The notes: generated by a model from the sequence alone, not told the origin. Shown: positions 1-33,395, numbered from the stretch's first letter. The stretch: 64,000 nucleotides of DNA from Candidatus Marinacidobacterales bacterium (GCA_965197825.1 CBDANW010000002.1:213271-277270), one strand, 5' to 3'. Numbers and translations: made by a program.

Positions 1-140
1 CTCGCCGGATGTTGCCACACCCGGCGAGCTTGCACGAACGCACGGTCCACAAGACCTAATCACACGTGAAGACGCGCGACAACGCTCGCTCACTGCATTT
101 TAGCGGCGAGAGGGTGTGGCGCGCAACTAATAGGAGTGCC

Positions 141-1097
141 ATGACTCATATCGCTCGGCTTCTATTGTGCTCGACCCTCTTTCTCTCACCCGTCGGCTCG
201 ACGCTCGCTGCGGCGGCTGATGAGCAACTCGGCGTGTTGGTCGTGGCTCATGGCTCGACGGCGGCGTGGAACGCCAACGTCGAGGCCGTGGTGACGATTA
301 TTCAACAACACATACCATCTAAAGTGGCGTACCTGATGGGTGCGAAGAACCGCACACCGCAGGAGGCGTACGACGAACTGGTCGTGGCTGGTGTCCAGCG
401 GATTGTCGTCGTGCCGCTCCTGGTATCTTCTTACAGCTCGCACTACGAACAGGTCCGCTTCATTGGCCGCCTTCGTGACGATTACCCGGGCTCCGAACGG
501 ATGAAACTCACGCCGCTGCACGGGCCTGCTGACGTTGTCGGCGTCACGCCGGCGCTTGATGCAGATCCGATCCTCGCTGACATCTTGTCCGACCGGGCGC
601 GTGCGCTCAGTCGTGACCCATCCACGGAAAGCCTCGTCATTGTGGCACACGGGCCGAACGGCGTCGCAGACGCAGACCGGTGGATGGACGTGATCCGGGA
701 ACTTGGCGTCCAAATCCGGTCTCTCGTTCCGTTTAAGGAGGTCGACGTCCGCCTCTTGCGAGATGATGCGCCCACACCGGTCAAAGACCAGGCGCTCTCG
801 GAGCTCAGACACTCGGTGGCCAACCGTGCAGCGTCGGGGCGGGTCGTCGTTGTGCCGCTCCTGCTCGGGCCGGGACGCGTCGTCGACCAGGTACCCAACG
901 TACTCACTGGATTGGATTACCTCTGGGACGGTCGACCCGTGCTCCCGGACAGCCGGATCGCTGACTGGGTCATGTCCCAGGTCGAGCATGTATCGGCGCA
1001 GCAAGATGCAGCCAGCCGGCAGTCGACTGATCGGCAGGTGACCGACCGGGCGCTGCCGCCGAAACCGACGCTGCTCAGTCGACAGATGATTGGCTGA
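141..1097 (+). CDS. Secreted CbiX-like (sirohydrochlorin cobaltochelatase-type) tandem two-domain protein; alternative start at 66
   Basis: Two repeats of the CbiX-type motif (VLVVAHGS... and LVIVAHGP...). Predicted signal peptide MTHIARLLLCSTLFLSPVGSTLAAAA. Uninterrupted ORF in a GC-rich frame. Confidence 0.55.
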   Translation: MTHIARLLLCSTLFLSPVGSTLAAAADEQLGVLVVAHGSTAAWNANVEAVVTIIQQHIPSKVAYLMGAKNRTPQEAYDELVVAGVQRIVVVPLLVSSYSSHYEQVRFIGRLRDDYPGSERMKLTPLHGPADVVGVTPALDADPILADILSDRARALSRDPSTESLVIVAHGPNGVADADRWMDVIRELGVQIRSLVPFKEVDVRLLRDDAPTPVKDQALSELRHSVANRAASGRVVVVPLLLGPGRVVDQVPNVLTGLDYLWDGRPVLPDSRIADWVMSQVEHVSAQQDAASRQSTDRQVTDRALPPKPTLLSRQMIG

Positions 1098-1111
1098 CTT
1101 TCTTCGATTCC

Positions 1112-3229
1112 GTGACCGTGACCGCGACGCTCCGGCCGTCGCCGGTACGGGAGATCCCTGGCATGGTGACGGTCTTCGACAGCGAGGTCATTCAGGCGAG
1201 GCTATTCGAGAACCTGTCTGATCTCGTCAAATACGAACCCGGGGTGTACGTCGAAAACAATGTGACCCGTCTTGGTCTTAACGGATTCAACATCCGCGGC
1301 ATCGGAAGGAATCGCGTGATGACGCAGGTGGACGGCATTCAGACAGCGGAGCAGTTCGACTTCGGGCCGTTCAGCGTGCATCAGATGGCGCTCGATCTCG
1401 ATGTGTTGAAATCCGTCGAGATCGTGCGGAATGCCAACTCGGCGCTTTACGGCAGCGACGCCCTCGGCGGCGTCGTGTCGCTGTTCACCAAGGATCCGGG
1501 CGACTACCTCCGCGGCAGGCGGTTCCACATCGGCGCCAAGACGACTTGGAATGGTCGCGCCGGGGATATCAGTGGGAACCTCACTCTGGCCGGGGGTACC
1601 GAACGGCTCCAAGCATTGCTCTTCGCCAGCTTCAACCGCGGGAACGAGGTCCTTAATAAAGGGACGGTAAAAACCCGTGATGCCACCCGTACCGCAGCGA
1701 ATCCGCAAGACGTATGGGGCACGCAACTACTGGGCAAGCTCGTTTTCACAGCCTCGCCCGGCAATATGTGGCGCGTGGCAGCGGAAGTCTACGACACCCG
1801 TGTCGAAACGACATGGTTCTCGGACATGGGATTGACGCAGCTCGGCCCGTTTCTTTATGACACGTTGGACTCGGTTGCTGTTGACACGCAGGGGCGCCAG
1901 CGCCTGTCGCTCGATCACACGCTAGTCGACCGCGCCGGTCTCGATCAACTGTCGTGGCGTATCTACCGCCAGCACAACGACACATTACAGGTCGTCGATC
2001 GTGAGCGTATGACGTCCGGCTTCGGGCCGCCGACTCATTCGACGCGCCACGAAACGGTCGACTTCGAGCAGATTGGCTACGGCGGATCGGTTCGGGGTCA
2101 GAAGTGGCTGGGTAGTTCGAGTAACGGTGTGCTAGTCACGTTCGGTGCCAGCTACCAGACCGACACCTTCGACATCCTGCGCGACCGGAGCGAGCTCAAC
2201 GTTCGAACGGCGGCGCCCGTACCGACCAGCCTGATCTTCCCGACCAAGTACTTCCCCGAAAGCGACGTCGCCGAGTCCGGTACGTACGTCCAGGCGGAGC
2301 TCCAGTTCGGCCGCATCACGCTCGTACCGGGGGTGCGTTACGATCACTTCTCGCTCGACGCCAACCAGAGCGACCCGATCTTCCTTGCAAGCCTGAACCC
2401 GGAGCCGATCGACTTCTCCTACAGCGCCGTGTCGCCGAAAGTTGGCGTGTCGGCGCGATTGACGGATGTGGTGACCGTCCACGCGCAGTACGCCAGCGGA
2501 TTCCGGGCGCCACCATACAGCACCGTCAACACCGGCTTCACGAACCCACAGGGAGGCTACGTCACGCTTCCCAACTCCGAGCTCAGGGCGGAGACGAGCG
2601 ACAACATCGAGGTCGGCGTGCGGACCGCATTCGACCGCGCGAGCTTCGGCGTGACCTTCTTCTCGAACTGGTTCGATGACTTCATCGACCTGACGACGAT
2701 CGGCTTCAATCCAAGAACCCGGCTGCTCGAATTCCAGAGCCGGAACCTCGAACAGGCCGAGATCAACGGTGTCGAGCTACGCGGCGAGGCGTACGTGACC
2801 GACCGTGTGATGATTCGCGGGAGCTACGCGAGAATCGACGGCGTCGAGATCTCGAAGGACGCTGCAGTCCCGCCACTCGCGGCTGAGACGCCGCTTGGTT
2901 CCATCGCGCCGAGCGAAGGTGTGCTCGGTATCCAGTACCTCCAACCGTCCGGTCGTTGGGGTGCGGAGCTCTCGGTCCGGTTGGTCGAGTCGTACGAGGG
3001 TGCCCCCGATGAAAACCAGTTCGCGCCGGACGCCTACCAGGTCGTCGACCTGGTGAGCCACGTCTCGCTCGCGAGGGCCCTCACGTTTCGTCTTGGTCTG
3101 CTCAACCTGACGGGCGCGACGTACTTCGAGTGGTGGAACGTGCGGGGACGCCAGGCGAACGACCCGGTGATCGATCGGTATTCGAGCCCGGGGATTAGTG
3201 TCATCGGGTCACTAGCGTACGACTGGTAG
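1112..3229 (+). CDS. TonB-dependent receptor (plug plus beta-barrel). GTG start lies at a TonB-box-like DSVTVTA with no signal peptide in frame, so the 5' end is unresolved.
   Basis: Plug motifs (VTVTAT..., NLSDLVKYEPGV, IRGIG) and barrel. Frame opens at 1031 with no Met before the TonB box. Upstream CbiX-like ORF ends at 1097 in another frame. Confidence 0.8.
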   Translation: MTVTATLRPSPVREIPGMVTVFDSEVIQARLFENLSDLVKYEPGVYVENNVTRLGLNGFNIRGIGRNRVMTQVDGIQTAEQFDFGPFSVHQMALDLDVLKSVEIVRNANSALYGSDALGGVVSLFTKDPGDYLRGRRFHIGAKTTWNGRAGDISGNLTLAGGTERLQALLFASFNRGNEVLNKGTVKTRDATRTAANPQDVWGTQLLGKLVFTASPGNMWRVAAEVYDTRVETTWFSDMGLTQLGPFLYDTLDSVAVDTQGRQRLSLDHTLVDRAGLDQLSWRIYRQHNDTLQVVDRERMTSGFGPPTHSTRHETVDFEQIGYGGSVRGQKWLGSSSNGVLVTFGASYQTDTFDILRDRSELNVRTAAPVPTSLIFPTKYFPESDVAESGTYVQAELQFGRITLVPGVRYDHFSLDANQSDPIFLASLNPEPIDFSYSAVSPKVGVSARLTDVVTVHAQYASGFRAPPYSTVNTGFTNPQGGYVTLPNSELRAETSDNIEVGVRTAFDRASFGVTFFSNWFDDFIDLTTIGFNPRTRLLEFQSRNLEQAEINGVELRGEAYVTDRVMIRGSYARIDGVEISKDAAVPPLAAETPLGSIAPSEGVLGIQYLQPSGRWGAELSVRLVESYEGAPDENQFAPDAYQVVDLVSHVSLARALTFRLGLLNLTGATYFEWWNVRGRQANDPVIDRYSSPGISVIGSLAYDW

Positions 3230-3346
3230 CCGCGACTGACGAGCCAAAGTGAAAGGGAACACGCATGCATCGCCATCACGAATCGGAAACGCTAGCCAGC
3301 GGTTCGCAATTGGCCGTGTATCAGTGCTGCCGGACCGACCTTTCCC

Positions 3347-3860
3347 GTCCTGTGCCAAAACTCGGCCCTTTTGAAATAGCCCCATAAATCAACAGCTTAG
3401 TGTCTGTGTTCGCGACCGGGCCAAGGGCCGTAGGCTCTACAATCGTCTTGGGCGGACGGGTCGTCACCATGCAGACGACCACCTGGTCGAGAGCGAATAT
3501 CCAAGCGTGTTCCTGAAGCTGTGTTTCCACGCTACACCGGTCGAGTCCACCGAGGGGCTACCGTCGCCGGCGACCATCTACGCGGCACGGCAGTAGTAGT
3601 TGAGAATGCCCCCAAGTCGCTCTCGCGACACGATGGGGCCAGCGTCAGTCGGGCTTGCCGGCAGAGGTGTGAGGAGCTCGTTGCCGAGACCTTGGTGGTT
3701 CCGTTTTGTGTGATAGTGCACTACGTATTCGGTTACCGCTGTCCGCAGGTGTCGCTCACTGAGAGGTACGAAGCGGTCGAGACACTCTCGACGTATGGAG
3801 AGAACGAATCTTTCCGCATATGCGTTCAGATTCGGACTATTAGCGGGAAGGCGAAGGGTG
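3347..3860 (-). mobile_element. IS481-like element 3' fragment (right TIR plus transposase C-terminus), minus orientation, truncated at about 3860
   Basis: Near-identical to the reverse complement of 23830-24336 of the complete copy. Readthrough ORF 3521-4288 is the antisense of the transposase C-terminus. Confidence 0.8.
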
Positions 3861-3955
3861 TGCCTTCCATTTATTCATCCGCGCGCACCGAACTTGATCG
3901 GTCTCCGGTCTGCCGGCACCATGCCTGCATGATTTCGTCGTTTGTTCGCGCTCTC
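3856..3955. repeat. Repeat family C (about 95 bp, consensus ...gtgccttctatttattcatccgcgcgcaccgaac...tttgttcgcgctc)
   Basis: Recurs at 22385-22485, 25292-25385, 47405-47445, 50565-50605 (reverse complement) and 59455-59550. Confidence 0.7.
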
Positions 3956-4149
3956 ATCTCTGCCCGTCGTGTCCCAAAAAAGAGAAACCAACTCCAGGCA
4001 GGTGCACCGGGACGTTTCGGATTAGAGGTCGTCTGGTCAAAATACTCGAACGCCCAGCGGGTCAGCAGTTTGCACCTTTCCAAGGGCTGCTTGAATTTGG
4101 CATCGCGGTCGGATACGTATTTCTTCCGGGTGCGCAGTTCGTTGCCTGC

Positions 4150-4325
4150 AGCTCGCCCCGCAGCCGATTTGAGCCAGCCGTGCGCACCCCCGGTGGGCCT
4201 GTCGCCCGCCACCCGCAGCCCAGGGGTCGGAAGCCAGTCCTGCGGCGCGAAATACCCTGGATTCTTCGCGGATTTCAAGGGCGTCTAAGCTGCTGATTTG
4301 TGGTCTATTTCAAAAGGGCCGAGTT
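4150..4325. repeat. Repeat family E (about 160 bp) fused to a solo TIR end of the IS481-like element
   Basis: gcagccgatttgagccagccgtgcgcacccccggtgggcctgtcgc...ggcgtctaagctgctgatttgtggtctatttcaaaagggccgagttttggcacaggacg. Copies at 6425-6636, 52500-52640 (reverse complement), 57640-57800 and a partial at 50505-50580. Confidence 0.7.
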
Positions 4326-4650
4326 TTGGCACAGGACGGGAACACCTTTCCGATTATCGCAGTCGTAAGGCTCAAGTGGGGGCAAGTGGAGCTATTCGGG
4401 TCTTGGTAGCAAACAAGCAGTAACGGTGCAAAACAGATCATCAAAATGCAATTTGAGGTCATTTCGGGGCTGAATCGAGCGCTAATCGCTCAGCTAATGA
4501 GAAGACGCCGTCGTGTCCAAAAACACAAACGAACTGGTGCTTCCGCAGTCAAGTGTTGGCGGCCGCCGCGTAACCTGTTCGCGTGCTAGAATTTTAGCCT
4601 GATTTCGAGAGGCGCAGTTCTTTCGTCGATGCCGGCTGGGCCGAGTTTTG

Positions 4651-6050
4651 GGTCAAGTCTTAATTTTCCTGTCAAATCTCCGTACGGTTCCCCGCGCTCG
4701 GTTAAGCTGCTGATTCCTCCGACGTGCCTTGCGGGAGAAGCTCGTTGCGAAGCTCCTCGACTTTCCTAGCGGCGAAGACATCCATCCTCACGCCGCGCCA
4801 TTTGTTTGCGACGGCCAAGAGCACAGCGAACGAGAGTTTCATCGCGGCCTCCTCGGTGAAGAAGTGAGGAATGACCTTTGTGCGACGTTTGTGCTCTCCG
4901 AACGTGCGCTCAAGTAGATTCGACGTGCGAAGCCTTTTGTGATGCGCCGCAGGAAGGCGTAGCGCCTGAAGACACGCTTCGAGGGTCTCTTCCATGCACT
5001 TCATCGCGCTCGGGAATCGTTGACGGTACCGAGCGATCACCTCCCGACCCTTCTTCAGCCCTTGCTCGTAGCTGTTCGCATGGAACGACTCAAGGATGGC
5101 CGCCTTGAGTTCGTCGCGCACTTCCTTCGGAGCCTTGCCCAGGATGTTCTCGAGGCGGTGCTTCTGGCAACGTTGCTTGAGGCTTCGAGGGAAGACCTCT
5201 GCGATCGCTTTGAGCACTCCAGGATTCCCGTCCGTCACGATGAGCAACGGCTCCCTCATTCCTCGGGCCACCATCTCCTGCAAAAACCCCTTCCAGTTCT
5301 CGTAGGATTCTCGGTTGCCGACACCGATATGAAGAAGAACTCGCGTCCCATCAGCGCGATAGCCGGTCGCAACGAGGATGGGCTCTTTCCTCTCCGCTCC
5401 TTGGTGGTAGCGCAGGTACGTGCCGTCGAGCTCGAGATACAACAGCTTCTCGTTCGAGAGATCCCGTTTTCGAAACGCCTCGAAATCCTCCGACAGACAC
5501 CGTGTGACCCGGCTCACCACCGACTTCGAGACACCCGTGCCGCTCAGCACGTCCGCGAACGTCGCCTCAATGTCACGCGTCGACATCCCGTGGACGTACA
5601 TCCGCGCGATCAGTTCATCGAGTTTCTCGGTCCGGCTCACGTAGGCGTCGAGAATCTTTGACTGAAACACCTTCTCTGTTTCTCGTACCCGCGGCACTTG
5701 CACCGTCACCGCTCCCTCGCCCGTGAGGACCCGATGCGACTCATACCCGTTGCGTCGTCCCTTCTCCTTCGTCGTTGCCGGAGCGTTCTCATAGTAGTTT
5801 CGACCCAACGCCTCCGTCACCTCGCGCTCCAACGCATATTGAAGCATCATCTGAGCTCCCGACCGGACGATCTCCGAGAGATTCATCTCCCCAAATACCA
5901 GTTGTTCCTCGAACTGCTTGAGTAATCGCTGACTCGGTAGTACCTTTCCCATGATGTATGGTTCTCCTTTTCTGTCCCCATGACGGGGACGGGTTTGAGC
6001 TTGGGGAACCATACATCGTTTTTCTTTGACAGGAATCTTAAGACATCACC
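4651..6050 (-). mobile_element. IS256-family insertion sequence, copy A (about 1400 bp)
   Basis: IRs GGTCAAGTCTTAATTTTCCTGTCAAA and GGTGATGTCTTAAGATTCCTGTCAAAG. Flanks gAGTTTTG and cAGTTTTG show a 7/8 target duplication. Inserted into a solo TIR of the IS481-like family. Confidence 0.9.
4702..5952 (-). CDS. IS256-family (mutator/MULE-type) transposase
   Basis: 416 aa from MGKVLPS... with AAAGGAGAA ribosome-binding site. Five near-identical coding copies in the window (4702, 28119, 42350, 55413 complete; 48405 partial). Confidence 0.9.
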   Translation of the reverse strand: MGKVLPSQRLLKQFEEQLVFGEMNLSEIVRSGAQMMLQYALEREVTEALGRNYYENAPATTKEKGRRNGYESHRVLTGEGAVTVQVPRVRETEKVFQSKILDAYVSRTEKLDELIARMYVHGMSTRDIEATFADVLSGTGVSKSVVSRVTRCLSEDFEAFRKRDLSNEKLLYLELDGTYLRYHQGAERKEPILVATGYRADGTRVLLHIGVGNRESYENWKGFLQEMVARGMREPLLIVTDGNPGVLKAIAEVFPRSLKQRCQKHRLENILGKAPKEVRDELKAAILESFHANSYEQGLKKGREVIARYRQRFPSAMKCMEETLEACLQALRLPAAHHKRLRTSNLLERTFGEHKRRTKVIPHFFTEEAAMKLSFAVLLAVANKWRGVRMDVFAARKVEELRNELLPQGTSEESAA

Positions 6051-6424
6051 CAGTTTTGGCACAGGACGAGGTCCGGCCATTCCACTCGCGGACGAGATGG
6101 GTGCTGGCGGAAACGGACCTCGCGGGAGCGGCGTTGCCTGGTGCCCCGTTCACCATGGCGGCCAGAATGCGCCGGGTTGCAGCCGAATGCCCGCCATGGG
6201 TCCGGCACTGGCGTTCGTGCAAGAGAACGCGGCGCAGGAAGATACGCGAGAGCGAGCTTGGCGGAGCAGCCCCGAAGGTTTGCTCCCAGATCCGCCGTAA
6301 GCTGGCGAAGTCCAAACCGTCCAAAACGACGTTCCGGCCAACTCCTGTATCCCGCGGCATCCCCAAACGTTCGCTCTTCTGCCCGGTAAAGTCCAGTCTA
6401 ATGAGGGACTTCCTGGTGCGAAGT

Positions 6425-6636
6425 CCGCTGCCCGCAGATCGCCCCGCAGCCGATTTGAGCCAGCCGTGCGCACCCCCGGTGGGCCTGTCGCTCGCCACTC
6501 GCAGCCCAGGGGTCGGAAGCCAGCCCTGCGGCGCGAACTACCCTCGATTCCGAGCGGATTCCAAAGGCGTCTAAGCTGCTGATTTGTGGTCTATTTCAAA
6601 AGGGCCGAGTTTTGGCACAGGACGCGATGGATGTAC
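6425..6636. repeat. Repeat family E plus solo TIR end
   Basis: Same module as 4150-4325. Confidence 0.7.
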
Positions 6637-6693
6637 GGGACTGTCGGACTGTTCACAGATTACCGAGTTCGATATCTCGTCGCTTCGCCGAAA

Positions 6694-6894
6694 GACGCCC
6701 CGGCTCGATAGGTCACATAACCCTTCGCGGGAAGTGTGCAGGAGCGCGTAGTGCGGGAAAGCCGCACGCTGCGTGCGACGTGGCGGGGGCTGGAAACGGA
6801 CTTACGGTGCGGCTAGTGAGGCACTCCCACAGGAAACGGGGAGAAACAGATAGGCCGCGCCTACGGAGCACCGCGCCAGCCCTCGACCCTACCG
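6694..6894 (+). repeat. 200-bp repeat family with internal GTGCGG-GAAA-CCGCAC (GNRA tetraloop) hairpin; unclassified
   Basis: gacgccccggctcgataggtcacataaccc...gtgcgggaaagccgcac...cctcgaccctaccg. Second copy (reverse complement) at 58672-58875. A 44-bp 3' piece at 61354-61397. Confidence 0.6.
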
Positions 6895-6974
6895 ACGACG
6901 GGTGTCAGGTGCACCGGGACCTTGGCGTTTCGGACACCGGCCCGGCAGCTATGGCTGCGCTGGAGAGCTTGAGA

Positions 6975-8267
<1,293 letters not shown>

Positions 8268-8657: not shown

Positions 8658-8709
8658 TGGCGTTCGACGCGCGGACTCCGGTCTTTTTTTTCGCAGATCA
8701 CAGGCATCC

Positions 8710-14673: not shown

Positions 14674-15067
14674 TCATCGGGGGAATCGTAACAAATCCTC
14701 GTGTCTGAAGAGCGTGAAGGAAGGGTTCAAGAAGGGCCAGGACAGCTCGAAGTGGGAAGCGGAAGACGAGATGCGGCTGTCGTCGTAATGATTGTTGAAG
14801 GATTCGAGGGCATTGTTGCTCTTGCCCCAGTGCTCCCACAGAGCGGCAAACGAAATCGGCGACCCGTCCTCAAGTGCCACAAAGTAGGGCTACTTGTCCT
14901 ACCCGGTCCGTTGCCACTCGAACCACCCATCGGCCGGCACCAGGCATCGACGCGAACGGAAGGCGCCGCCGAATGACGGCTTTGTGCGTCGGGCGGCCAT
15001 TTCGTGAGCCGATTCGAGGGCTGTGCTCCGCAAAAACTCGATCCGTCGTTGATTCCGCGAAAGTGTG
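14674..15067 (-). pseudogene. SRAP/YedK-family (abasic-site processing, DUF159) gene remnant: N-terminus replaced by an IS, two in-frame TAG codons
   Basis: ...KPSFGGAFRSRRCLVPADGWFEWQRTG-TAG-DK-TAG-PYFVALEDGSPISFAALWEHWG... . Catalytic N-terminal Cys region lost to the IS256-like insertion at 15068. Confidence 0.6.
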
Positions 15068-16488
15068 CCAATCTTAGTTGGGAATTGAAACGGCTCCAAA
15101 CCCCGTGGTTTGATGGCGTTGGACAAAACAAAATCAAGCCGCGAAGAAAGGAAGCCGAGATGGGAAGTCTGCTACGTTCGGTCAATAAACGCAAGAAGTC
15201 GCGTCGTTTGGGTGAGGTCGAGATGGTGAGGCACGAGGATTACGGGGAACTCGCGCTGGACGCCAAGGTAGAGATGATCCGTTCGTTGGTCCCCCTTGGT
15301 CTAATGCACGTTCACGAGTTGCTCGACGACGAAGTGAAGGCGTTGGCGGGAGAGCGATACTCTCGCAAGGACGAGCTGGAACGCGGTCGCCGTCCCGGAA
15401 GCAACCCGGGCACGGTAGGGCTTGGCGGCCAGCGGGTACCGATCCGTGTGCCACGGGTTCGGAGCATCGAGGGAGGAGAGATTCCGCTTCGCTGCTACGA
15501 GGCGGTGAGCCACGGCGGTGAGGTGAATGATCTTCTGCTGAAACGAGTTCTCTACGGAATCTCTTGTCGCAACTACGAGGCGGCAGCGGAAGCGATTCCG
15601 GGCGCCATCGGGCTGTCGAGCTCAACGGTGTCCCGAGGGTTCGTGCAAGCGAGCGCTGCGAAGCTGCGGGAGATGCAGGAACGGGATCTGACCGGCGAGG
15701 ATGTGGTGGCGCTGTTTCTGGATGGGAAGACATTCGCCGAGGCAACGATGGTCGTGGCTCTGGGCATCACGCTTTGCGGGGAAAAACGCTTCTTGGGCTT
15801 CGTGGAGACGGACACGGAGAACGGGCAGGTGTTGACGCCGTTCCTGCGTTCACTGCTCGAGCGGGGACTCGATATCTCCCAGGGTCTGCTGGTGATCATC
15901 GACGGCGGCAAGGGTCTCCAAGCGGCAGTCAAGAAGGCATTCCGTAAGCGGGCCCTGATACAACGCTGCCAGTGGCACAAACGTGAAAACGTAGTGAGCT
16001 ACCTGTCCAAGGGCGAGCAGGCGTCATGGCGCAAGCGGCTCCAGTGGGCCTACAACAGGCCGGAGTACGAAGAGGCCCTCACTGCGCTCGAGCAACTCCA
16101 CGGTGAGTTAGAAGAGCGGAACCAATCCGCAGCTGGCAGCCTGGAGGAAGGCCTCGAGGAGACGCTGACGTTGCATCGACTCGGCGTATACGGGGTGCTG
16201 GGCCGTTCGTTCAAGACGACGAACTGCCTTGAGTCCGTCAATGCTCTCGTCGAGGAACGCTGCGCGAAGGTCGACCACTGGAAGAACTCGAGCCAACGCC
16301 AGCGCTGGTTGGCAACGGCGCTCGTAGACATCGAACCGCGCTTGAGGAAGGTGGTGGGCTACCGCCATCTTCCCAAGCTTCGCGAAGCTCTCAAGCGGGA
16401 ACTGAAGATCGAGGCGAAGACATCAACCGTATCGAAGAAGAAGGTCGCTTAAACGTGAGCCGTGGAGAGTTTCAACTAAGAATGGGCT
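15068..16488 (+). mobile_element. IS256-family insertion sequence, type 2 (distinct from the five-copy element)
   Basis: IRs CCAATCTTAGTTGGGAA and CCATTCTTAGTTGAAA. A short end fragment at about 53640-53740. Confidence 0.75.
15160..16452 (+). CDS. IS256-family transposase (type 2)
   Basis: MGSLLRS... 430 aa, mutator-type DDE region (...LVIIDGGKGLQAAVKKAF...RCQWHKREN...). Confidence 0.8.
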   Translation: MGSLLRSVNKRKKSRRLGEVEMVRHEDYGELALDAKVEMIRSLVPLGLMHVHELLDDEVKALAGERYSRKDELERGRRPGSNPGTVGLGGQRVPIRVPRVRSIEGGEIPLRCYEAVSHGGEVNDLLLKRVLYGISCRNYEAAAEAIPGAIGLSSSTVSRGFVQASAAKLREMQERDLTGEDVVALFLDGKTFAEATMVVALGITLCGEKRFLGFVETDTENGQVLTPFLRSLLERGLDISQGLLVIIDGGKGLQAAVKKAFRKRALIQRCQWHKRENVVSYLSKGEQASWRKRLQWAYNRPEYEEALTALEQLHGELEERNQSAAGSLEEGLEETLTLHRLGVYGVLGRSFKTTNCLESVNALVEERCAKVDHWKNSSQRQRWLATALVDIEPRLRKVVGYRHLPKLREALKRELKIEAKTSTVSKKKVA

Positions 16489-17566: not shown

Positions 17567-20290
17567 TCAGAACGAGACGGTGGCGGTCATCGAGATCGTC
17601 CGCGGCGCGCCGAGCCAGGCAGCGTTCTCGGTGATGGCGGAGAGATAGGCCTTGTCGAGCAGGTTGTTCGCCACGATCGAGAACTCCGTCGACCGAAGTA
17701 GATCGCTCAATGCCTCGCCTGAGAAACTGACGTAGGCATCCACCAGCCAATAGGCGTCCGCGTACCAGTCCGCCGCCGTCAGGCTGACGCGCCGCGGCGA
17801 TGTGTACTTGGCGCTCAGCCCCATGCCGAGGGGGCCGGTCCGGTCGAGTGAGACGACCCACAGCCGATCCGGCACGCCAGTGACGTCAGTCCCCGCAACG
17901 ATGCCCTGGTTGGCGTCGACGAGCGGGTCGCCGCTTCCGATGTACTCCGAGTCGTTGAACGTGTAAGCGGTATAGAACGACATCCGCTGCGGCATCTGCA
18001 CCGTCGCGGAAAGCTCGACACCGCTCGTGTCGATGCCGCCGGCGTTGAAGTAGGCGCCGCCTCCGGGGATGAGGTAGTTGGGACCAGCGAGCGTTTGCGG
18101 ACCGAGGTAGAAGACCCGGTTCTCGAAATCGATAGTGTACCAGGTGGCACTCAATGCCACCCGCTCCCCCGCATACTGCAGCCCGACATCGATGTTCGAG
18201 GCGGTTTCCGGTTCGAGCAGGTCGAGACTCCGGCCCGGCATCTCAAGCAGCGTGCTGCTGATCGCCTTGAAGTTCTGGGCATAGCCTGCAAAAAAGTCGA
18301 GCCCTTCGACCGGCGTATCGTATGTGACGCCACCGGAGAAGAGCAGGTCGGAATCGGAATCGAAGGTCAGGTCCGGGTCGACATTGAACAGGTCCTCGCG
18401 CGACACGCCGACCAGGAACTGCTTGACGCCGCCGCTCAGAGCAAACGGCCCGGCGTAGAGCGTCTCCTCCACGTACCACTTGAAGACGTGCTGCGGGAAG
18501 TCCCACTCGTACTGGTGCCAATAGGCCTGCTCATCCCACTTGAAGCTGAGCGTCGGGTCCAGCATCTGGTGCCAGTCCCGGCCAAGGTCCCGCCGCGAGT
18601 CCTCGTACCAGATGCCGGCGCGCAGCGTGCTGCCGACGTCGCCGATGGTGGTGAACCACTCCTCGTCGAGCGTCACGCCGACGCGGTCTTTCCCGTAGTG
18701 GCTGTGGCGGTACGACTGCACCGCGGTGGCGCCCGGGTGGCACGCCGGGTCGACCTCCGGGCCGCCCGAGCCATAGTAGTTGAAGATGTAGGACGACATG
18801 CACCTGGGCTTCGGTCCGACGGCGACGCCCTCCTGGTTCACGAAGCGGATCAGCCCGCGCTGCGCGCCGCCTTGTACCGGTGTCCGGCCCATCAGCTCCG
18901 ATTCCGGTCCGCCGCCGTCGTCGGTGACGTCGACGATGTAGGGAGGCAGCCAGTCGCCGCGGCCCCGGTTGCGATGAAAATAGGCGCCCGCGCTCAGCGA
19001 GCTGACGTCGCTGAACGACCAGTCCGCTTTCAGGTAGGCGAACGTGTTGTTCCGCCGTGTCTGCCAGCCTGGCCGGTAGAACTGGTTCAGGTACGGGACG
19101 CCGGGCCAGTCGCCGACCAGGCGGTCCCACCGCGGGTTGGCCAGGAAGTCGGCCTCGCTGTAGATCCGCTGGTAGGTATCCTCGTGGATGCTGTCGTACG
19201 AGATGTAGCTGGTGAGATCGAGGCGCCCGTGCGACGAGACCAGCTTGGCGGCAACGTGCTCCCGCTCGTTCCGCGCCGAACCCTGCACCCAGTCGGTCGC
19301 CTCCTGGCGGACTGCGGCGATCCAGGCGCGGGTCTCACTGCCGAACAGCGGCCCGGTGTCGACCCGCATGGAGAACCGCTTGCCGTCGTTCTCGCCGATG
19401 GTGGTCGACGCGGTGTAGGTCCGCTCGGCCGCCGGATCGTCCGTGATGAAGTTGAAGGTGCCGCCCAGCGCCTCGACCGACCGGGAGGCGATGTCGGCCG
19501 TCCCCTGCGACACCTCGACGCCCCCGAGGTTCATCGGGTCGATGAACCGGTTCGCTTTGGAGCCGCTCCAGTAGTCGGACGTACCGTTCGGGAATCCGTC
19601 GATGGTGGTGCCGATCTGCGCGTCGTTGATGGTCACCTGGAAGCCACGCACGGCGACGTTGCTCGACCAGTCGTCGAAGCCGTACGCGTCCCCCTCCTGG
19701 ACGGATACACCGGGGAGGTTGTCCACCACCGACGTCACGCTGGTGATGTTCGATTGCTGCAGCATCATCGGTTCGGCGACGACGTTGCGCGCGAAGATCT
19801 GGGGCTCCTCGGCGACGACGCTGACCGTTTCGAGCAGCCGCGTGACCTGCAGGCTGACGTCCACCGTCGGCGCGGACGCGGCGGCCAGCTCGACGGTATG
19901 CGCCAACTCCTCGAAGCCTGGCAGTGTGAACGTGATGGTGTACGCGCCTGGCGGCAGCGCCTCGAACACGTAACTCCCGTCCCCATCGGTTACAACCACG
20001 CGCGTGCCGACGGCCAGCGCGGGTCCCGCGGCTGCGACGGTCACGCCGGGCAGCACACCGCCGGTTTCGTCGGTGACCGTCCCGGAGATCGTCGCGTCCT
20101 GGGCGTTGGCGACGCCGGGCGCGTACACGACGGCCGCGAAAACCAGCACCAGCAAGAGGAAAGCCTGTCTGTGATTGCGAGGTGTCAATAATTTGTCGCT
20201 CCATTTACCGCTTCGCATCGCTAGAAAAGCTGAGCCTCGCAATGGCGTCCATCGAAACATTAGTTTCAGTTTCATGGTTTTACCCTTCAT
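17567..20290 (-). CDS. TonB-dependent receptor with N-terminal carboxypeptidase-regulatory-like domain; likely start at MRSGKW (20215) or MKLKLMF (20275)
   Basis: Signal peptide ...QAFLLLVLVFAAVVYAPGVANAQD, then ATISGTVTDETGGVLPGVTV, plug and barrel. C-terminal ...TISMTATVSF. Confidence 0.85.
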   Translation of the reverse strand: MKGKTMKLKLMFRWTPLRGSAFLAMRSGKWSDKLLTPRNHRQAFLLLVLVFAAVVYAPGVANAQDATISGTVTDETGGVLPGVTVAAAGPALAVGTRVVVTDGDGSYVFEALPPGAYTITFTLPGFEELAHTVELAAASAPTVDVSLQVTRLLETVSVVAEEPQIFARNVVAEPMMLQQSNITSVTSVVDNLPGVSVQEGDAYGFDDWSSNVAVRGFQVTINDAQIGTTIDGFPNGTSDYWSGSKANRFIDPMNLGGVEVSQGTADIASRSVEALGGTFNFITDDPAAERTYTASTTIGENDGKRFSMRVDTGPLFGSETRAWIAAVRQEATDWVQGSARNEREHVAAKLVSSHGRLDLTSYISYDSIHEDTYQRIYSEADFLANPRWDRLVGDWPGVPYLNQFYRPGWQTRRNNTFAYLKADWSFSDVSSLSAGAYFHRNRGRGDWLPPYIVDVTDDGGGPESELMGRTPVQGGAQRGLIRFVNQEGVAVGPKPRCMSSYIFNYYGSGGPEVDPACHPGATAVQSYRHSHYGKDRVGVTLDEEWFTTIGDVGSTLRAGIWYEDSRRDLGRDWHQMLDPTLSFKWDEQAYWHQYEWDFPQHVFKWYVEETLYAGPFALSGGVKQFLVGVSREDLFNVDPDLTFDSDSDLLFSGGVTYDTPVEGLDFFAGYAQNFKAISSTLLEMPGRSLDLLEPETASNIDVGLQYAGERVALSATWYTIDFENRVFYLGPQTLAGPNYLIPGGGAYFNAGGIDTSGVELSATVQMPQRMSFYTAYTFNDSEYIGSGDPLVDANQGIVAGTDVTGVPDRLWVVSLDRTGPLGMGLSAKYTSPRRVSLTAADWYADAYWLVDAYVSFSGEALSDLLRSTEFSIVANNLLDKAYLSAITENAAWLGAPRTISMTATVSF

Positions 20291-20571: not shown

Positions 20572-20888
20572 CGTCCTGTGCCAAAACTCGGCCCTTTTGA
20601 AAGACCATGGCTGTAATTTAATGCACTGTAAAGTCTTAGTGTCATTTTGCCAACACTTAATGGCGGAAGCACCCATGAGGTCTGTGTGAGCGGCAGGGCT
20701 GCCCGATCGAACAACGGCTGCCTGACCAACGGTAGGAATTGCACATGGTACGTCATGATGGATCCGAAGATAACACCCTCGGGCCAGACGATTGTAAAGG
20801 CCACGGCCCTTGGCACCATCGCAAAACACAGACGCTAAGCTGCTGATTTATCGGCTATTTCAAGAGGGCCGAGTTTTGGCACAGGACG
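20572..20888. mobile_element. MITE copy (IS481-like derivative)
   Basis: See 8710-9026. Confidence 0.8.
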
Positions 20889-22285
20889 AGGAGCTGTCCG
20901 ATGCCACCATCACTTACTCGGGCGGCGTGGCCGGCACGGAAGGAATCGTCCACAGCGGCATCGGTCCGTTCGACATGCAGTCGGGGACATATATGGGCTA
21001 TGGCAAGCTGAACTACACGCGGGGCGACCTGCAGATACAGTTCTTCGCGAACTTCCTGGACGGCAAGGCGCCGAACCTGTTGCTGCCGGACATCGCCACC
21101 GGGATGCCGCTGCAGCTCGACTTCAAGTCACAGACGTTCGACGGCGAGATCGGCCACTCGGTGTTCCTCGGAAGCCGGCACCGGCTGAACTACGGCGGCA
21201 ACGTGCGGCAGAACAACTTCGACATCACCCTCGCACCGCTTGGCGAGAACCGCCTCGAGGTGGGCGGGTACCTGCAGGACGAGATCTTCTGGGAACGGTT
21301 CCGCCTCGTTCTGGGCGGGCGCGTGGACAAGTTCGGCAACCTCTCCGACCCAAAGTTCTCGCCGCGGATCGCGTTCATCGTCAAGCCGGCAGAGGATCAC
21401 TCCGTCACGCTGTCGTACAACCGGGCCTTCCGTGCGCCGTCGGTCATCAACAACGCCCTGCAGACGAACATCGTCAGCCCGGTGGACCTGAGCGCCCTCG
21501 CGCCGGTGCTGCAGCCAGCGGTCGCCCAGCCGTTTCCGCTCGTGGTCGGCGCGTCCGGCAGCGACATCCCGATCGGCGGGATGCCCCAGGACGAGTTGAC
21601 GGAGGAATCTTTGACGGCGTACGAAGTGAGCTACACTGGCGTGCTCCCGCGCGGGACGACGCTCGGCGGCTCGTTCTTCGTCAACCGGCGGGATGACTCC
21701 ATCAACTTCACCGCGCTGCCGCCAAGTCTCGACCCATATACCGCAGCAAGTCCACCGCCCGGATGACGGCTCCCGCCGCTCGTGCTGACGCAGATGGCGC
21801 AGTTAGGGATCTTTCTGCCTCGAACCGCGTTCACATACCTGAATCTGGGTCCGATCCGCCAGACCGGCATGGAGCTGTGGCTCGAACAGAAGGTCTCACG
21901 GTCGCTAGCCGCGTCCATCAACTACTCCTGGCAGTCCGAACCGGAGATCCTGGACAATCCGAACCCGTATCTGCCGGCGGAGCTCAACCTGCCCCCGACG
22001 CACCGGTTCAACGCAGCGATGACGTGGAACGGGTCGAGGTTGCTGGGCTCCGCCTCGGTAAACGCCGCCACCGACGCGTTCTGGAGCGACGTCCTCACGT
22101 CGGCGTATCACGGCTACACCGACGGGTACGCGACGGTGAACGGTAGCTTCGGGGTGAAGTGGCAGGGAGGCACCGTCACGACGACGGTGAAGGTGACCAA
22201 CCTGTTCAACCAAACTGTCCAGCAGCACATCTTCGGCGACCTGCTCCGGCGAACCGTTGTAGGCGAGATGAAGTTCAGGTTCTGA
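20889..22285 (+). pseudogene. TonB-dependent receptor barrel remnant: 5'-truncated by the MITE and frameshifted near 21765
   Basis: Two ORFs (20810-21766, 21782-22285) with TBDR barrel features. Ends ...VVGEMKFRF. Confidence 0.65.
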
Positions 22286-30054: not shown

Positions 30055-30377
30055 GTTCATGGGCGCGCTGGGGTACGAGCCGGGAGTCTCCTTCGTCGGA
30101 CCGCTCCCGGGGTCCCTCATCGGTGAGTTCTGCCAGGTGGCCGTTTTTGGCCAGCCATCCTCGGGCCTCGGCCCAGCCCCGGCGCGCCCTCTAAGGTAGA
30201 GGTGTCAAAAAAAGTATATAATTCCCAAAATTAAATACTTTGGATATTAGTCCAACTAGCCAAGTAATTGAATCTTATGATACTTACTAGAGAGACTTTC
30301 TGATGCTTTGTGGAATTGCCTCCGCAGTTAGCCCCCGACGGTAAACTTCTATGAACCACCTACCTCGGAAGGGTTTG

Positions 30378-33300
30378 ATGAAACGAAATATACTTCTAGG
30401 CCCGTTAGCGTGCATGCTCATCGCGAGCACGGCGTCGGCTCAGGTCGAGATCACAGGTCGCATCGTAGTGGCCGTGGAAGACCAGCAAGGCAGCCGCCTT
30501 CCTGGCGCCACGGTATCGGCGTCGGCATCGGACAGCGTTACGTCGCGCGAGGCGGTGACGAACTCGGTTGGAGAAGCGACGCTGCTCGCCATGGATCCTT
30601 CCGCGAGCTACAGCGTCGTCGTCACCATGCAAGGTTTTGCCGACTCGCGCAACGAGAACGTTCTCGTGCGCTCGGGTCACACAGCCTCGCTGCGCGTGAC
30701 CTTAGGCCTGGCCGGCGTTGCGGTGACCGTCACTGTAACCACGGAGACACCTCTCGTCGACACCACCAGCGCCATCACCGGCCAGGACGTGACGCTCGAG
30801 CTGACGGAATCGCTTCCGACAGGTCGGAGCTACCAGAGCTATCTGCAGCTTGTTCCAGGAGTCTTGCCCGATGATCCGGACAAGCCGGGCAATCCGTCCG
30901 CCAAGTCGGGTCTGAACTACAGCGACATCAATGGCGATGTCGGCCATTCAGCTGACAACTTCTATTACATCGACGGGATCAACATCACGGATGGCAACAG
31001 CGGCACCTTCGGCGCCAACCTGAACACGGAGATCATCCAGGAGCAGAAGGTCCTCACCGGCGGTATGCCCGCGGAGTACGTGGGCGCGCCTGGCTTGATG
31101 TCGAACGTGGTCTTGAAGGCCGGAAGCAACACGTTCAGCGGATCCGTCAACTACTTCTTCCAGAACGACAGCCTCGAAGCAGCCAACGAGAACTTAAAGG
31201 ATCAGGCATTCTCCACGTATGACGGGGCGTTTACTCTCGGTGGACCCATCATCACGGACAAATCTTGGTTCTTCGCGAGCTACCGGCGCATCAATCGTGA
31301 TGACGATGTGGTCGCGAACGACACCGGTGAGTTTCTCCGTACCGTCAGCAACTCTCAGGACCAATGGTACTTGAGAGGAACGTACTCGCCGACTGCGTAC
31401 GATACCGTCAGCTTCACGTTTTTGAACGATCCAACGACCATCAGCGGGCGTCGCGAGATCGACATCAGTAATGCCCGTGACCGCTCCCGCGATCAAGGTG
31501 GGAACCGGTGGGGCGTCAAATACTCCCGTCTACTGGGGATGAACGCCCTCCTCAACGTCGTCTTCAACAAGCACAACGGTGAGCTCTCCGACTTCAGTGT
31601 CATCCGCGAGGCGGAGAACAGCATCTCTTTCCCAGCCGGCTCCGGTTTCACCCGTGCGGATCAGGAGCTCGGCGGATGGGGGTCGGACATCATCAATCAA
31701 CGCGACACGAAGCTCTTCAGTGCCTCGCTCGACTACTCCCCAGACGTTCACGACATCAAGGCCGGTGTCGAGTGGAAAGAGAACTCGAACTTCCGTAACG
31801 GTTTAACGATCGGTGCCGACAACGCTCGGTGGTGGTCGTTGGATCCGAGCCTATCTGGAATCACGGCGGGCGACTACGTGTTTCGGGCCGGAAGCTCCGG
31901 CGAGATCGCCGGGGCCGTGAACTTCGACCCCTCAAACGCGAGCGATTACGGCGGGCTCATCAGGACCATCGATGGCCGACCCGATCGTGCGGCGTTCTAC
32001 AACGCCTACGATTCGAATGGCGATGGCACGATCACCCAGGAAGAGCTGGCCGCGAACATGGTATTCAACAGCACCGCCGGCAACCCCCACGGGAGAGTCA
32101 ATTACGACCGTTTCGCCCAGACGGCCGCCGGCGAGCAGTTCACGAAGAACCGCGGCTTGACCTTCTACGTTCAGGACTCGTTCCGCGCCGGCAACTTCGT
32201 GTTCAACGCCGGCCTCCGAATAGAGAATTGGCGCTACTTCAACACTCTGGGTGAGAAGACGTCGTTCTTCGAGTGGACCTTTGCTCCCCGTATCAGCGCT
32301 GTCTACGACATCAAGGGCGATGCGCGGCAAAAACTCTCCGCGTTCTGGGGCCGCTACTACGATCCGATCCGCAACAACATGACGAACTTCGCCGGTTCGG
32401 TCTCCGGCCGCGTGCGCGAAGAGCAGGTCTGGGCCAATGCCGTCGGCGACTGGGTAACCTACCGTGTCCGTGGCGGCCCGGTGCAACCGGATGCCTTGTT
32501 CGCACCGACGACGAAGACGCCGTACACGGACGACCTCCAGGTCGGCTACGAGATCGACCTCGGCAACAGCACGAGCTTCGAGGTTCTCTACACGAACCGT
32601 CGCACGCGCCAAATCCTCGAGGACTATGACCTCGCGCTCTACGCGTTCGCGACCGATGGCTCGACGCTCTACCTCGGTCCGATCGATCACCCCGACTCCT
32701 TGTTCCTCGGTTTGGACTACTTCGGGTACACCGAGAACCCTGGATCGAACTTCGTGATTGCCACTCTCGCGGGCGGCAAGCGCGACTACCAGGGTCTCGA
32801 GCTTACCTTCCGTAAGCGCTTCACCGGCAATTGGCAGGCGCTCGTTTCGTACAACTACAACGACGCCAAGGGCAACACGAACTCGGACTCCAACGCCGAC
32901 TTTCAGGGCGACGTGATTTGGCTCGACCCGCGGGCGCCGAACCAGTTCGGTGACCAACCGGGCCTCATCCGTCACCTCTTCAAGGGAGCCGTCACCTATC
33001 AGTTCGACATGGGGCTGGAGCTCGGTACTGGCTTTACGGCCAACAATGGGTTCCTTCTGAGTCGGACGTTCCTCGCTTCCAGACGTCACCTGCCAATCCG
33101 GGATACCCAGAACACGACGTTTGCCGGAATCACCCGGAGGTGGCTCGAACCCGGTGCCGTTGGCGGCGTGGATAACCCCTCATGGGCGCAACTCGATCTA
33201 CGGATCCAGTACATCGCCCGGTTCCAGGGCAACATGCGAGCGGAGTTCTTCGTGGACATCTTCAACGTGCTCAACAGCCAGGTTGCGTTCCGCAACCAGG

Positions 33301-33395
33301 ACTTGGTGGCCGGTGGCGGTGGCATCGACTTCGGCGAGGCTACCAACTGGCGCCGTCCGAGGCGCATGTTCCTCGGAGTCCGCTTCAACTTCTAG
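30378..33395 (+). CDS. TonB-dependent receptor with carboxypeptidase-regulatory-like N-terminal domain (about 1005 aa)
   Basis: Signal peptide MKRNILLGPLACMLIASTASAQ. VEITGRIVVAVEDQQGSRLPGATV. Plug and 22-strand-type barrel. C-terminal ...GVRFNF. AT-rich promoter region upstream (30185-30350). Confidence 0.85.
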   Translation: MKRNILLGPLACMLIASTASAQVEITGRIVVAVEDQQGSRLPGATVSASASDSVTSREAVTNSVGEATLLAMDPSASYSVVVTMQGFADSRNENVLVRSGHTASLRVTLGLAGVAVTVTVTTETPLVDTTSAITGQDVTLELTESLPTGRSYQSYLQLVPGVLPDDPDKPGNPSAKSGLNYSDINGDVGHSADNFYYIDGINITDGNSGTFGANLNTEIIQEQKVLTGGMPAEYVGAPGLMSNVVLKAGSNTFSGSVNYFFQNDSLEAANENLKDQAFSTYDGAFTLGGPIITDKSWFFASYRRINRDDDVVANDTGEFLRTVSNSQDQWYLRGTYSPTAYDTVSFTFLNDPTTISGRREIDISNARDRSRDQGGNRWGVKYSRLLGMNALLNVVFNKHNGELSDFSVIREAENSISFPAGSGFTRADQELGGWGSDIINQRDTKLFSASLDYSPDVHDIKAGVEWKENSNFRNGLTIGADNARWWSLDPSLSGITAGDYVFRAGSSGEIAGAVNFDPSNASDYGGLIRTIDGRPDRAAFYNAYDSNGDGTITQEELAANMVFNSTAGNPHGRVNYDRFAQTAAGEQFTKNRGLTFYVQDSFRAGNFVFNAGLRIENWRYFNTLGEKTSFFEWTFAPRISAVYDIKGDARQKLSAFWGRYYDPIRNNMTNFAGSVSGRVREEQVWANAVGDWVTYRVRGGPVQPDALFAPTTKTPYTDDLQVGYEIDLGNSTSFEVLYTNRRTRQILEDYDLALYAFATDGSTLYLGPIDHPDSLFLGLDYFGYTENPGSNFVIATLAGGKRDYQGLELTFRKRFTGNWQALVSYNYNDAKGNTNSDSNADFQGDVIWLDPRAPNQFGDQPGLIRHLFKGAVTYQFDMGLELGTGFTANNGFLLSRTFLASRRHLPIRDTQNTTFAGITRRWLEPGAVGGVDNPSWAQLDLRIQYIARFQGNMRAEFFVDIFNVLNSQVAFRNQDLVAGGGGIDFGEATNWRRPRRMFLGVRFNF

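Follow-up and report, generated by a model that had tools for sequence, protein, structure and literature searches.

In Porphyromonas gingivalis, the CbiK-like protein IhtB/FetB is a heme-binding outer-membrane lipoprotein and a putative reverse ferrochelatase (PMC12094164); in vitro, FetB acts as a chelatase, and it is required for the production of manganese protoporphyrin IX (Mn-PPIX) (PMC13065792). CbiK(P) of Desulfovibrio vulgaris (PDB 2XVX/2XVZ) is periplasmic, binds metalated porphyrins and is thought to act in heme or iron handling and not in B12 synthesis, as the work of Lobo et al. 2008 is cited in PMC13065792. The Hmu system of Bacteroidota comprises the hemophore HmuY, the TonB-dependent receptor (TBDR) HmuR and HmuS, a CobN-like chelatase homologue proposed to strip iron from heme (PMC10100974, PMC13227078). 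The N-terminal extensions described for TBDRs are the FecA-type STN signalling domain and the CarboxypepD_reg 'NTE' (N-terminal extension) of SusC-like and other TBDRs (PMC9331221). Here we analyse a 64,000-nucleotide (nt) stretch of DNA from a Candidatus Marinacidobacterales bacterium (GCA_965197825.1 CBDANW010000002.1:213271-277270; hereafter the window, with positions counted from its first letter), at the left end of which a CbiX-like open reading frame (ORF) abuts the frame of a heme-type TBDR. To judge from the DNA of relatives, the two abutting frames are one gene, split by a 4-nt deletion in the linker, whose intact form is present in other Candidatus Marinacidobacterales genomes. Taken as a whole, the locus is very likely a split fusion gene for a PhuR-like heme receptor carrying a periplasmic CbiX-like domain; this copy is probably a recent pseudogene, and its intact counterparts would serve heme import.

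The two frames form a single gene in relatives

The CbiX-like ORF spans 66..1097 on the + strand, and its likely true start, from the ORF list and the sequence, is the ATG at 141 (Table 1). Its N-terminus, MTHIARLLLCSTLFLSPVGSTLAAAA|DEQ, has the n/h/c layout of, and by inspection only resembles, a Sec type I signal peptide. Lipoprotein export via a lipobox was considered and ruled out, the Cys at position 10 being Phe in the orthologue P0001. The mature part carries the two motifs VLVVAHGS (residues 32-39) and LVIVAHGP (residues 165-172) and matches Pfam CbiX (PF01903) with 46.8 bits against a gathering cutoff of 22. The receptor frame is preceded by a closing TGA at 1028-1030 and stays open from 1031 to 3229, so that it overlaps the CbiX-like ORF by 67 nt (1031-1097). 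It begins SAGDRPGAAAETDAAQSTDDWLTFFDSVTVTATLRP and includes ...STDDWLTFFDSVTVTATLRP..., a low-complexity segment followed by a TonB box. The only start codons ahead of the plug are GTG 1112, within the TonB box, and ATG 1163, and inspection of the frame ahead of the plug found no hydrophobic signal sequence. The receptor frame thus has no signal peptide of its own; in the restored fusion and in the orthologues, that of the CbiX-like part serves. Chance is not a concern for these domain calls, because the matches are family-level. A model's earlier reading of the window (the sequence-only reading) had described a secreted tandem CbiX ORF ending at 1097 and a TBDR frame opening at 1031, and every element of this description held at these coordinates.

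Searching with the CbiX-like ORF retrieved P0001 and P0002, both of which read in frame through the junction (...VSAQQDAASRPSTARQVTDQPDAAPETKDPQSTDEPLTFLDSVTVTATLRP... in P0001). Using the conceptually joined protein as the query, we found P0121-P0136, which are 987-1052 residues long, 72-98% identical and all composed of Pfam CbiX, Plug and barrel. The closest intact orthologue is P0121 (1030 residues, 98% identical); P0122 has 1010 residues, and many members of the 1010- and 1030-residue clusters stem from separate contigs. The order in these 1010-1030-residue orthologues is signal peptide, CbiX-like domain of about 270 residues, linker of about 35 residues, TonB box, plug and barrel. At the DNA level, both parts share one frame in loci L003-L005 and L007-L011. 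The junction reads GTGACCGACCAACCGGGCG in L003/L005 and GTGACCG----ACCGGGCG in the window (GTGACCGACCGGGCG as sequenced), a single 4-nt gap, and L001 likewise carries the extra 4 nt and is in frame at this point. Over 141..3229, the window differs from L003 by 67 substitutions and by this gap as the sole indel, with no internal stop, and putting ACCA back yields a clean ORF of 1030 codons. Through the deletion, whose exact position is ambiguous inside a GACC/GACC/AACC repeat, the receptor part is read in frame 2 instead of frame 3. In unfused receptors, the segment homologous to the linker is the mature N-terminus.

The sequence-only reading had left two explanations side by side, namely a frameshift that hides a fusion and a receptor truncated at its 5' end. 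Alignment of the orthologous loci, which yielded single in-frame proteins of 1010-1030 residues, up to 98% identical to the window and separated from it by the one 4-nt gap, bears out the former and decides against the latter. From the first ORF of the window copy in its sequenced form, one would still expect a free CbiX-like protein, exported and ending in an aberrant tail of 15 residues; the receptor remnant, having no signal peptide, should be dead or unexportable.

A recent lesion or an assembly error

The evidence leans towards a real lesion, and we consider the window copy to be probably a very recent pseudogene in a genome ridden with insertion sequences (IS). The deleted unit lies within an imperfect GACC-GACC-AACC repeat and therefore looks like a slipped-strand deletion, not a homopolymer miscall. 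The transposase ORF is intact in each of the four IS256 copies of the window, and the copies differ from one another by a single indel that is shared two versus two, which indicates that indel errors are rare locally. The locus is also eroded in other respects: a dispersed repeat, about 100 nt past the stop codon, is where synteny with the intact loci ends, the partner genes found downstream in L003/L005 are absent, and IS elements lie adjacent. Moreover, the orthologue has been broken independently in relatives. In L001 the plug is cut by an IS256-type insertion, in L089 an IS lies at codon 296, and the L006 copy is truncated; the protein P0257 was traced to the different lesion in L089, the IS insertion.

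Several observations weigh against a real lesion. The deletion is known from assembled sequence alone, so a consensus error is possible. The ratio of nonsynonymous to synonymous substitution rates (dN/dS) of the receptor part, 0.15 between the window and L003, is the same as for two intact copies compared with each other (0.14). The receptor remnant therefore shows no sign of relaxed selection; with dN/dS equal to that of intact pairs and with no further lesion, the lesion, if real, is very recent. A public protein, P0266 (688 residues), is the receptor remnant starting from ATG 1163 and is identical to it, but it could not be traced to DNA and is probably from the same assembly, not an independent record. 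The exact 318-residue split product was sought among recorded proteins, and none is on record elsewhere. It is in our view unlikely, though a contender to be taken seriously, that the deletion is an assembly or consensus error and that the organism carries an intact fusion of 1030 codons. Such an error would fit a deletion that is the sole lesion in an otherwise perfect ORF under constraint indistinguishable from that of intact pairs. These genomes hold several near-identical paralogous copies (two in OZ253507), which could confuse polishing, and low-coverage relatives show many evident frameshift errors (L002, 3x). It fits poorly with the loss of 4 nt in a short repeat where a homopolymer slip would be expected, with the intact IS copies, with the partner genes lost at the repeat and with the independent IS breaks in L001 and L089.

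The CbiX-like domain is predicted to adopt a class II chelatase fold

The structure prediction that the sequence-only reading had proposed for the CbiX-like protein was run with AlphaFold2 (AF2). The model of the domain has a predicted local distance difference test score (pLDDT) of 92.8 and shows repeated beta-alpha units in both halves. In Foldseek it matches SirB with E=2e-10 (template modelling score, TM, 0.62/0.73), followed by DR2241, CbiK(P) (2xvz, E=2.5e-7), FetB/IhtB (9b86, E=1e-6) and coproporphyrin ferrochelatases (CpfC). The model thus places the N-terminal domain among the class II chelatase folds.

At the sequence level, the nearest family is CfbA/CbiX-small (family profile). A search of the window protein for PF06180 (CbiK) gave no match, and FetB (9B86) was reached with the family profile only at E=0.013. 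H37 is invariant in the family and aligned with His9 of CfbA; 17 of the 19 aligned sequences have H100, which falls within one residue of His75 of CfbA in the alignment. We take His9 and His75 to be the catalytic residues of CfbA, and, as read from these alignments, the retained pair of His in the N-lobe is compatible with catalysis. In the second lobe H170 is invariant, with no partner His there. Across 102 family members, the invariant positions are H37, G38, W43, M66, V91, P92, H170, G171, P172, W181, D209, R223, P239 and W276. The biosynthetic equivalog models NF033198 and NF002090 score the domain at 34-37 bits against a cutoff of 120. Together with the signal peptide and the transporter context, these low scores argue against a cytoplasmic biosynthetic role, whether in siroheme, B12 or F430 synthesis. 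In an AF2 model of the full-length orthologue P0121, the CbiX-like domain is confident and the receptor poor (mean pLDDT 57; predicted TM score, pTM, 0.44).

The receptor part is of the heme type

The receptor part matches TIGR01786, the TonB-dependent hemoglobin/transferrin/lactoferrin family receptor model, with 331.3 bits against a cutoff of 323.75, and it aligns over its full length with PhuR (PDB 8THE; E=3.3e-80). In the alignment to PhuR, the FRAP box is kept as GFRAPPY, and the Tyr of the PhuR 'GYH' is retained (GGYV) while the His is lost. Judged by family models and homology, heme is well supported as the substrate of the window receptor, and heme transport is its most likely predicted function.

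Regulatory signals were sought upstream. A Fur-like palindrome at -275 from the ATG was found in 11/11 fused Marinacidobacterales loci with an intact upstream region, with 13-15 of 19 matches to GATAATGATAATCATTATC; in L004-type loci this box lies just downstream of a promoter-like TTGACC-N18-TATAAT. This suggests that the fused loci are likely iron-regulated. The window begins at -140 and holds 140 nt of leader, and the position of the orthologues' box is 135 nt beyond its left edge. The whole window contains no Fur box of at least 14/19 matches. A scan of 1..3700 found no promoter-like site, and terminator-like matches there were at chance level; Rfam models run over 1..8000 with permissive E-values detected no cobalamin riboswitch and nothing else of relevance. 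Of the two upstream signals that the sequence-only reading had looked to, a cobalamin riboswitch or a Fur/Zur box, the riboswitch is thus not detected by Rfam, and the box, missing from the window, appears in Fur-like form upstream of the orthologues. The leader of L003 (8935-9140) consists of a TTGACC/TATAAT pair, the Fur-like palindrome, a mini-ORF of 6 codons (MKCSKP*) with its own GGAGAGG, and a hairpin. This hairpin has 9 bp, is GC-rich and has an A-run ahead, and its minus-strand reading resembles an intrinsic terminator; the window starts within it.

Fused and unfused forms across genomes

The domain relatives were examined in 80 loci from species-representative genomes, classified by domain-trimmed profiles. 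A CbiX-TBDR fusion is present in 10/80 loci, all Acidobacteriota: 7 from Marinacidobacterales, plus L012, L014 and L015 from Vicinamibacterales-type or other acidobacterial metagenome-assembled genomes (MAGs). In a further 27/80, mostly Gemmatimonadota, a TBDR gene ends at most 600 nt upstream of a separate cbiX-like gene on the same strand, so that the domain is fused or adjacent to a TBDR in 37/80 loci. A TBDR lies elsewhere within the fetched stretch in 7/80, and none was found in 36/80, where several contigs end short. The distant fusions comprise CbiX, CarboxypepD_reg, Plug and barrel in L014 and L015, and CbiX, Plug and barrel in L012; their receptor parts are only about 30-36% identical to that of the window. 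The family counts 1,867 members at E<=1e-3 in a 50%-identity representative library. At least 8 distinct 50%-identity clusters among the top 150 family members are fusions, and all the genome-traced ones are from Acidobacteriota.

The unfused pair forms an operon (hmuY)-TBDR-cbiX-like in Gemmatimonadota, with an HmuY-family gene directly upstream of the TBDR in L026, L046, L060, L062 and L070, and unfused acidobacterial loci have the TBDR followed by the cbiX-like gene. Within Marinacidobacterales, unfused receptors 70-75% identical to the window receptor are followed by a separate cbiX-like gene of 299 residues, near feoAB with a DtxR-like regulator, ferritin and a chlorite-dismutase-family gene. 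Orthologues in the form of two separate genes, the TBDR with a normal signal peptide, would have spoken against a fusion. Such genes do exist, but they are paralogous, their order is reversed and their CbiX part is only 36% identical, which also rules out the fusion as a recent read-through of a neighbouring unfused pair.

Other family members are large multidomain proteins in which 2-4 CbiX modules occur together with FmdE, SLH, dockerin, cadherin-like, GLUG or copper-amine-oxidase-N domains (P0271-P0278, P0381, P0389), a domain content that suggests cell-surface anchoring. The anchored and the TBDR-linked forms together indicate that the family is extracytoplasmic in very different cell envelopes. 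Stand-alone members are named sirohydrochlorin cobalto- or ferrochelatase in databases, and for an exported, transporter-linked protein the name sirohydrochlorin chelatase is almost certainly wrong.

Proposed function and the question of substrate

The intact fusion most likely imports heme, with a domain tethered in the periplasm that accepts the heme or removes its iron. In a TBDR, the plug has its N-terminus on the periplasmic side. The chelatase-like domain is N-terminal to the TonB box and is therefore a periplasmic extension, tethered near the channel exit. Under iron limitation, the transporter would import heme, driven by TonB, and the tethered domain, on its linker of about 35 residues that is disordered in the models, would capture heme in the periplasm. 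That the domain acts as a heme acceptor or chaperone is a plausible view, to which we give a fair hearing but not a majority; that it is a dechelatase freeing Fe2+ for FeoB is possible, though we hold this more tentatively. Both roles are kept because the His pair is compatible with catalysis but not invariant. As a dechelatase, the domain would correspond, on the class II side, to IhtB/FetB, a putative reverse ferrochelatase, and to the class I homologue HmuS of Bacteroidota. Heme or porphyrin binding and metal insertion or removal are candidate activities of the domain. Like the exported CbiK-type proteins, it combines an export signal, recognised by inspection, with linkage to a TBDR (the 37/80 loci) and to iron genes (feoAB and ferritin nearby). 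Bolder, and on balance doubtful, is the idea of a single-polypeptide 'import and demetallate' machine, in which the transporter would deliver heme straight to its own tethered domain, which would run in reverse and release Fe2+ for FeoB, and the family of about 1,900 clusters would represent widespread extracytoplasmic heme dechelatases.

A number of points count against this picture of heme import and handling. The heme link of the exported CbiX-like family is so far a genomic one. TIGR01785 scores the receptor at 304.3 bits, just under its cutoff of 316.85, and the NPNL box is degenerate (LPNSEL). The HmuY-linked TBDRs of Gemmatimonadota score best with a B12-receptor model, or about equally with the heme model, in either case far below cutoff. 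H100, the second putative metal-site His, is not invariant and is Val in the unfused acidobacterial partners. Finally, the full-length model of P0121 gives no information on docking of the domain. For the family as a whole, given the B12-model scores, 'tetrapyrrole' is a safer term than strictly heme.

It is improbable, in our assessment, that the substrate is not heme but another tetrapyrrole (a corrinoid or precursor) or free Co/Ni, or that the domain inserts metal in the forward direction into an imported porphyrin. The closest sequence families are sirohydrochlorin Co/Ni chelatases, several partner TBDRs from Gemmatimonadota as well as those of L012 and L014 score about equally on B12 and heme models, all below cutoff, and FetB, with its chelatase activity, is needed for Mn-PPIX production (PMC13065792). 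Against this stand the window receptor, which passes the cutoff of the heme/hemoglobin family and matches PhuR over its full length, the HmuY hemophore genes in related operons, the lack of a cobalamin riboswitch in 1..8000 by Rfam, and the Fur-like box and feoAB/ferritin neighbours, which point to iron. The metallo-tetrapyrrole uptake that the sequence-only reading had guessed at is thereby supported and narrowed to heme by TIGR01786, PhuR homology, the HmuY genes and the Fur-like box. Its cobalt/nickel or cobalamin-precursor option loses ground, as no cobalamin riboswitch was detected in 1..8000 and nothing is specific to Co/Ni.

Two further explanations of the junction are highly improbable. 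In the first, the shift is functional, and programmed -1 ribosomal frameshifting or slipped-strand phase variation toggles between a free CbiX-like protein and the fused transporter. Hemoglobin receptors of Haemophilus are known to phase-vary through tetranucleotide repeats; here the lesion does lie within a short (G/A)ACC repeat, reduced from three units to two, and the truncated product would still be exportable as a stand-alone CbiX-like protein. However, two or three imperfect units are far below the need of efficient slippage, and a slippery heptamer X XXY YYZ was sought in the 1031-1097 overlap and none was found. Nor is the shift conserved in relatives: L003 and L005 (98% identical) and L001 carry the extra 4 nt in frame, and all intact relatives have one frame. 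In the second, the window would hold two separate genes, or a 5'-truncated receptor brought by accident, for example by IS-mediated rearrangement, beside an unrelated secreted CbiX gene; the region is IS-dense and separate TBDR and cbiX-like genes occur within the same bacterial order, but the sequence is collinear with intact fusions through the junction save for 4 nt, the linker has its homologue in the mature N-terminal segment of unfused receptors, and the unfused loci are the divergent, reversed ones described above.

Features of the window and genomic surroundings

Table 1. Coordinates of the split gene, its parts and the nearest flanking elements in the window
Feature	Position	Strand	Basis
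3' part of conserved leader hairpin, GCTCGCCGG-N12-CCGGCGAGC	1..30	+	alignment of upstream regions, 10 related loci and L003
Ribosome-binding site AGGAG (132-136) and start codon ATG (141-143)	132..143	+	sequence; start shared with orthologues P0001, P0121, P0257
Split gene (CbiX-like ORF and receptor frame)	141..3229	+	ORF list, translation, alignment of relatives
Putative Sec-type signal peptide, residues 1-26, AAA|D	141..218	+	inspection; low pLDDT in model
CbiX-like domain, predicted class II chelatase fold, two alpha/beta lobes	228..1028	+	Pfam CbiX, AF2 model, Foldseek, invariant columns
Deletion site, 4 nt (ACCA) absent between 1044 and 1045	1041..1049	+	DNA alignment with L003, L005, L001
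Low-complexity linker in restored frame, PGAAAETDAAQSTDDWLTFF	1046..1105	+	translation; pLDDT 20-28 in full-length model
Out-of-frame tail of CbiX-like ORF produced by the deletion, ALPPKPTLLSRQMIG*; stop TGA 1095-1097	1050..1097	+	orthologues read QPGAAAETDAAQSTDD there
TonB box DSVTVTAT	1106..1129	+	translation; motif kept in fused and unfused relatives
Plug domain	1145..1474	+	Pfam PF07715, 78.3 bits
Beta-barrel domain to C-terminal ...SLAYDW, with stop 3227-3229; FRAP-like motif GFRAPPY	1874..3229	+	Pfam PF00593 (TonB_dep_Rec_b-barrel), 173.7 bits
Dispersed repeat, synteny break with intact loci	3344..3858	.	95% identical copy at 24338-23827
IS256-family element, transposase 4702..6012	4651..6050	-	Pfam Transposase_mut; self-BLAST

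The species-representative genomes that hold the gene are MAGs of Candidatus Marinacidobacterales (Acidobacteriota), several with chromosomes of 8-10 Mb, and their loci, like the window, are crowded with IS. A search of the literature under this order name returned no paper. In L001 (6965-9248) and L003 (7104-8808), a DUF2924 gene and a large serine recombinase gene lie immediately upstream on the opposite strand, and in OZ253507 the two copies of the fusion gene are about 80 kb apart. The fusion gene may travel with a mobile segment. Downstream of the intact fusions in L003 (12669-14417), L005, L007, L009 and L010 is a gene for an exported protein of about 580 residues with two further, degenerate CbiX-like modules that share 26% identity with the fused domain; the next gene in L003 encodes a Spondin_N-domain lipoprotein (14709-15422). 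Both genes are absent from the window.

Full copies of the IS256 element (Transposase_mut; 1.4 kb, >99.6% identical) lie at 4651-6050, 28068-29467, 42256-43654 and 55319-56717, with a partial copy at 48403-48901, and these copies point to a recent IS expansion. More diverged Mutator-family transposases are encoded at 15004..16452 and 36386..37630. Dispersed repeats resembling miniature inverted-repeat transposable elements (100-320 bp, 91-99% identity) lie between genes at 8707-9026, 20570-20888, 37795-38114, 44391-44706 and 57164-57477, and the short repeats at 3857-3964 and 4123-4344 have many copies in the window and in L003/L089; the repeat at the synteny break (3344-3858) belongs among these families. 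Other outer-membrane genes of the window are a TBDR with CarboxypepD_reg, Plug and barrel (17567..20290, -) and an Oar-like gene with CarboxypepD_reg and OMP_b-brl_4 (30351..33395, +); a barrel-only TBDR fragment of 318 residues (20810..21766, +) is probably another truncated gene. At 6742-6830 (+) the Rfam model of group II intron domain V/VI matches below its threshold (27.8 bits versus a gathering threshold of 40, E=0.027). Near the right end, a tandem duplication (62430-62829 / 62835-63233, 88.5% identity) spans two neighbouring minus-strand ORFs of 186 and 188 residues (62403..62963 and 62960..63526).

Comparison with known systems

Exported class II chelatase homologues tied to heme or iron uptake, heme TBDRs and TBDR extension domains are all known already; their fusion is apparently new. 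In our literature search, neither a TBDR carrying a fused chelatase-fold domain nor this exported CbiX-like family turned up. The finding touches on the open question of how iron is released from heme without oxygen-dependent cleavage of the ring, for which HmuS (class I) and IhtB/FetB (class II, 'putative' in PMC12094164) are candidates. The covalent fusion is Rosetta-stone evidence for physical cooperation between receptor and chelatase-like domain, and the same pair recurs in a second phylum as the hmuY-TBDR-cbiX-like operon. The window copy itself is broken, and its value lies in the family reached through it. The domain is small, soluble and confidently predicted, and an intact orthologue may reveal substrate channelling from the barrel to a tethered acceptor.

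With the cytoplasmic chelatases SirB, CbiX-long and CfbA, the domain shares the fold and the two lobes, and its putative His pair, of which H100 is not invariant, lines up with His9/His75 of CfbA to within one residue; it differs in being exported, in its transport context and in its own invariant features W43, M66, HGPN, RDDAP and W276. CbiK(P) of D. vulgaris is, like it, an exported class II chelatase-fold protein and among its structural matches, yet it belongs to the CbiK sequence family, stands alone, no fusion of it to a transporter being known. The receptor part resembles PhuR of Pseudomonas aeruginosa in plug, barrel, TonB box, FRAP-like motif and full-length alignment, whereas PhuR carries a signal peptide of its own and lacks an enzyme-like domain at its N-terminus.

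The P. gingivalis IhtA/IhtB pair is comparable in that an exported protein of class II chelatase fold is genetically coupled to a TBDR in a heme/iron context. There, however, the genes are separate, and IhtB, from the CbiK family (PDB 9B86), is a lipoprotein of the cell surface; the window domain, by contrast, belongs to the CbiX family, has a predicted type I signal peptide and would be periplasmic, covalently placed N-terminal to the TonB box. The Hmu operon of Bacteroidota parallels the unfused Gemmatimonadota relatives in its make-up of hmuY, TBDR and chelatase-family protein, but HmuS is a large class I protein (CobN/ChlH-like), not a small class II CbiX-like one, and no fusion is known. 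Like the STN domain and the CarboxypepD_reg NTE, the CbiX-like domain would be a folded periplasmic domain between signal peptide and TonB box, and in L014 and L015 it stands even ahead of a CarboxypepD_reg NTE. Unlike the NTE types described, it has the fold of an enzyme, a chelatase, and the fusion thus enlarges the short list of N-terminal extensions on TBDRs by one with an enzyme fold.

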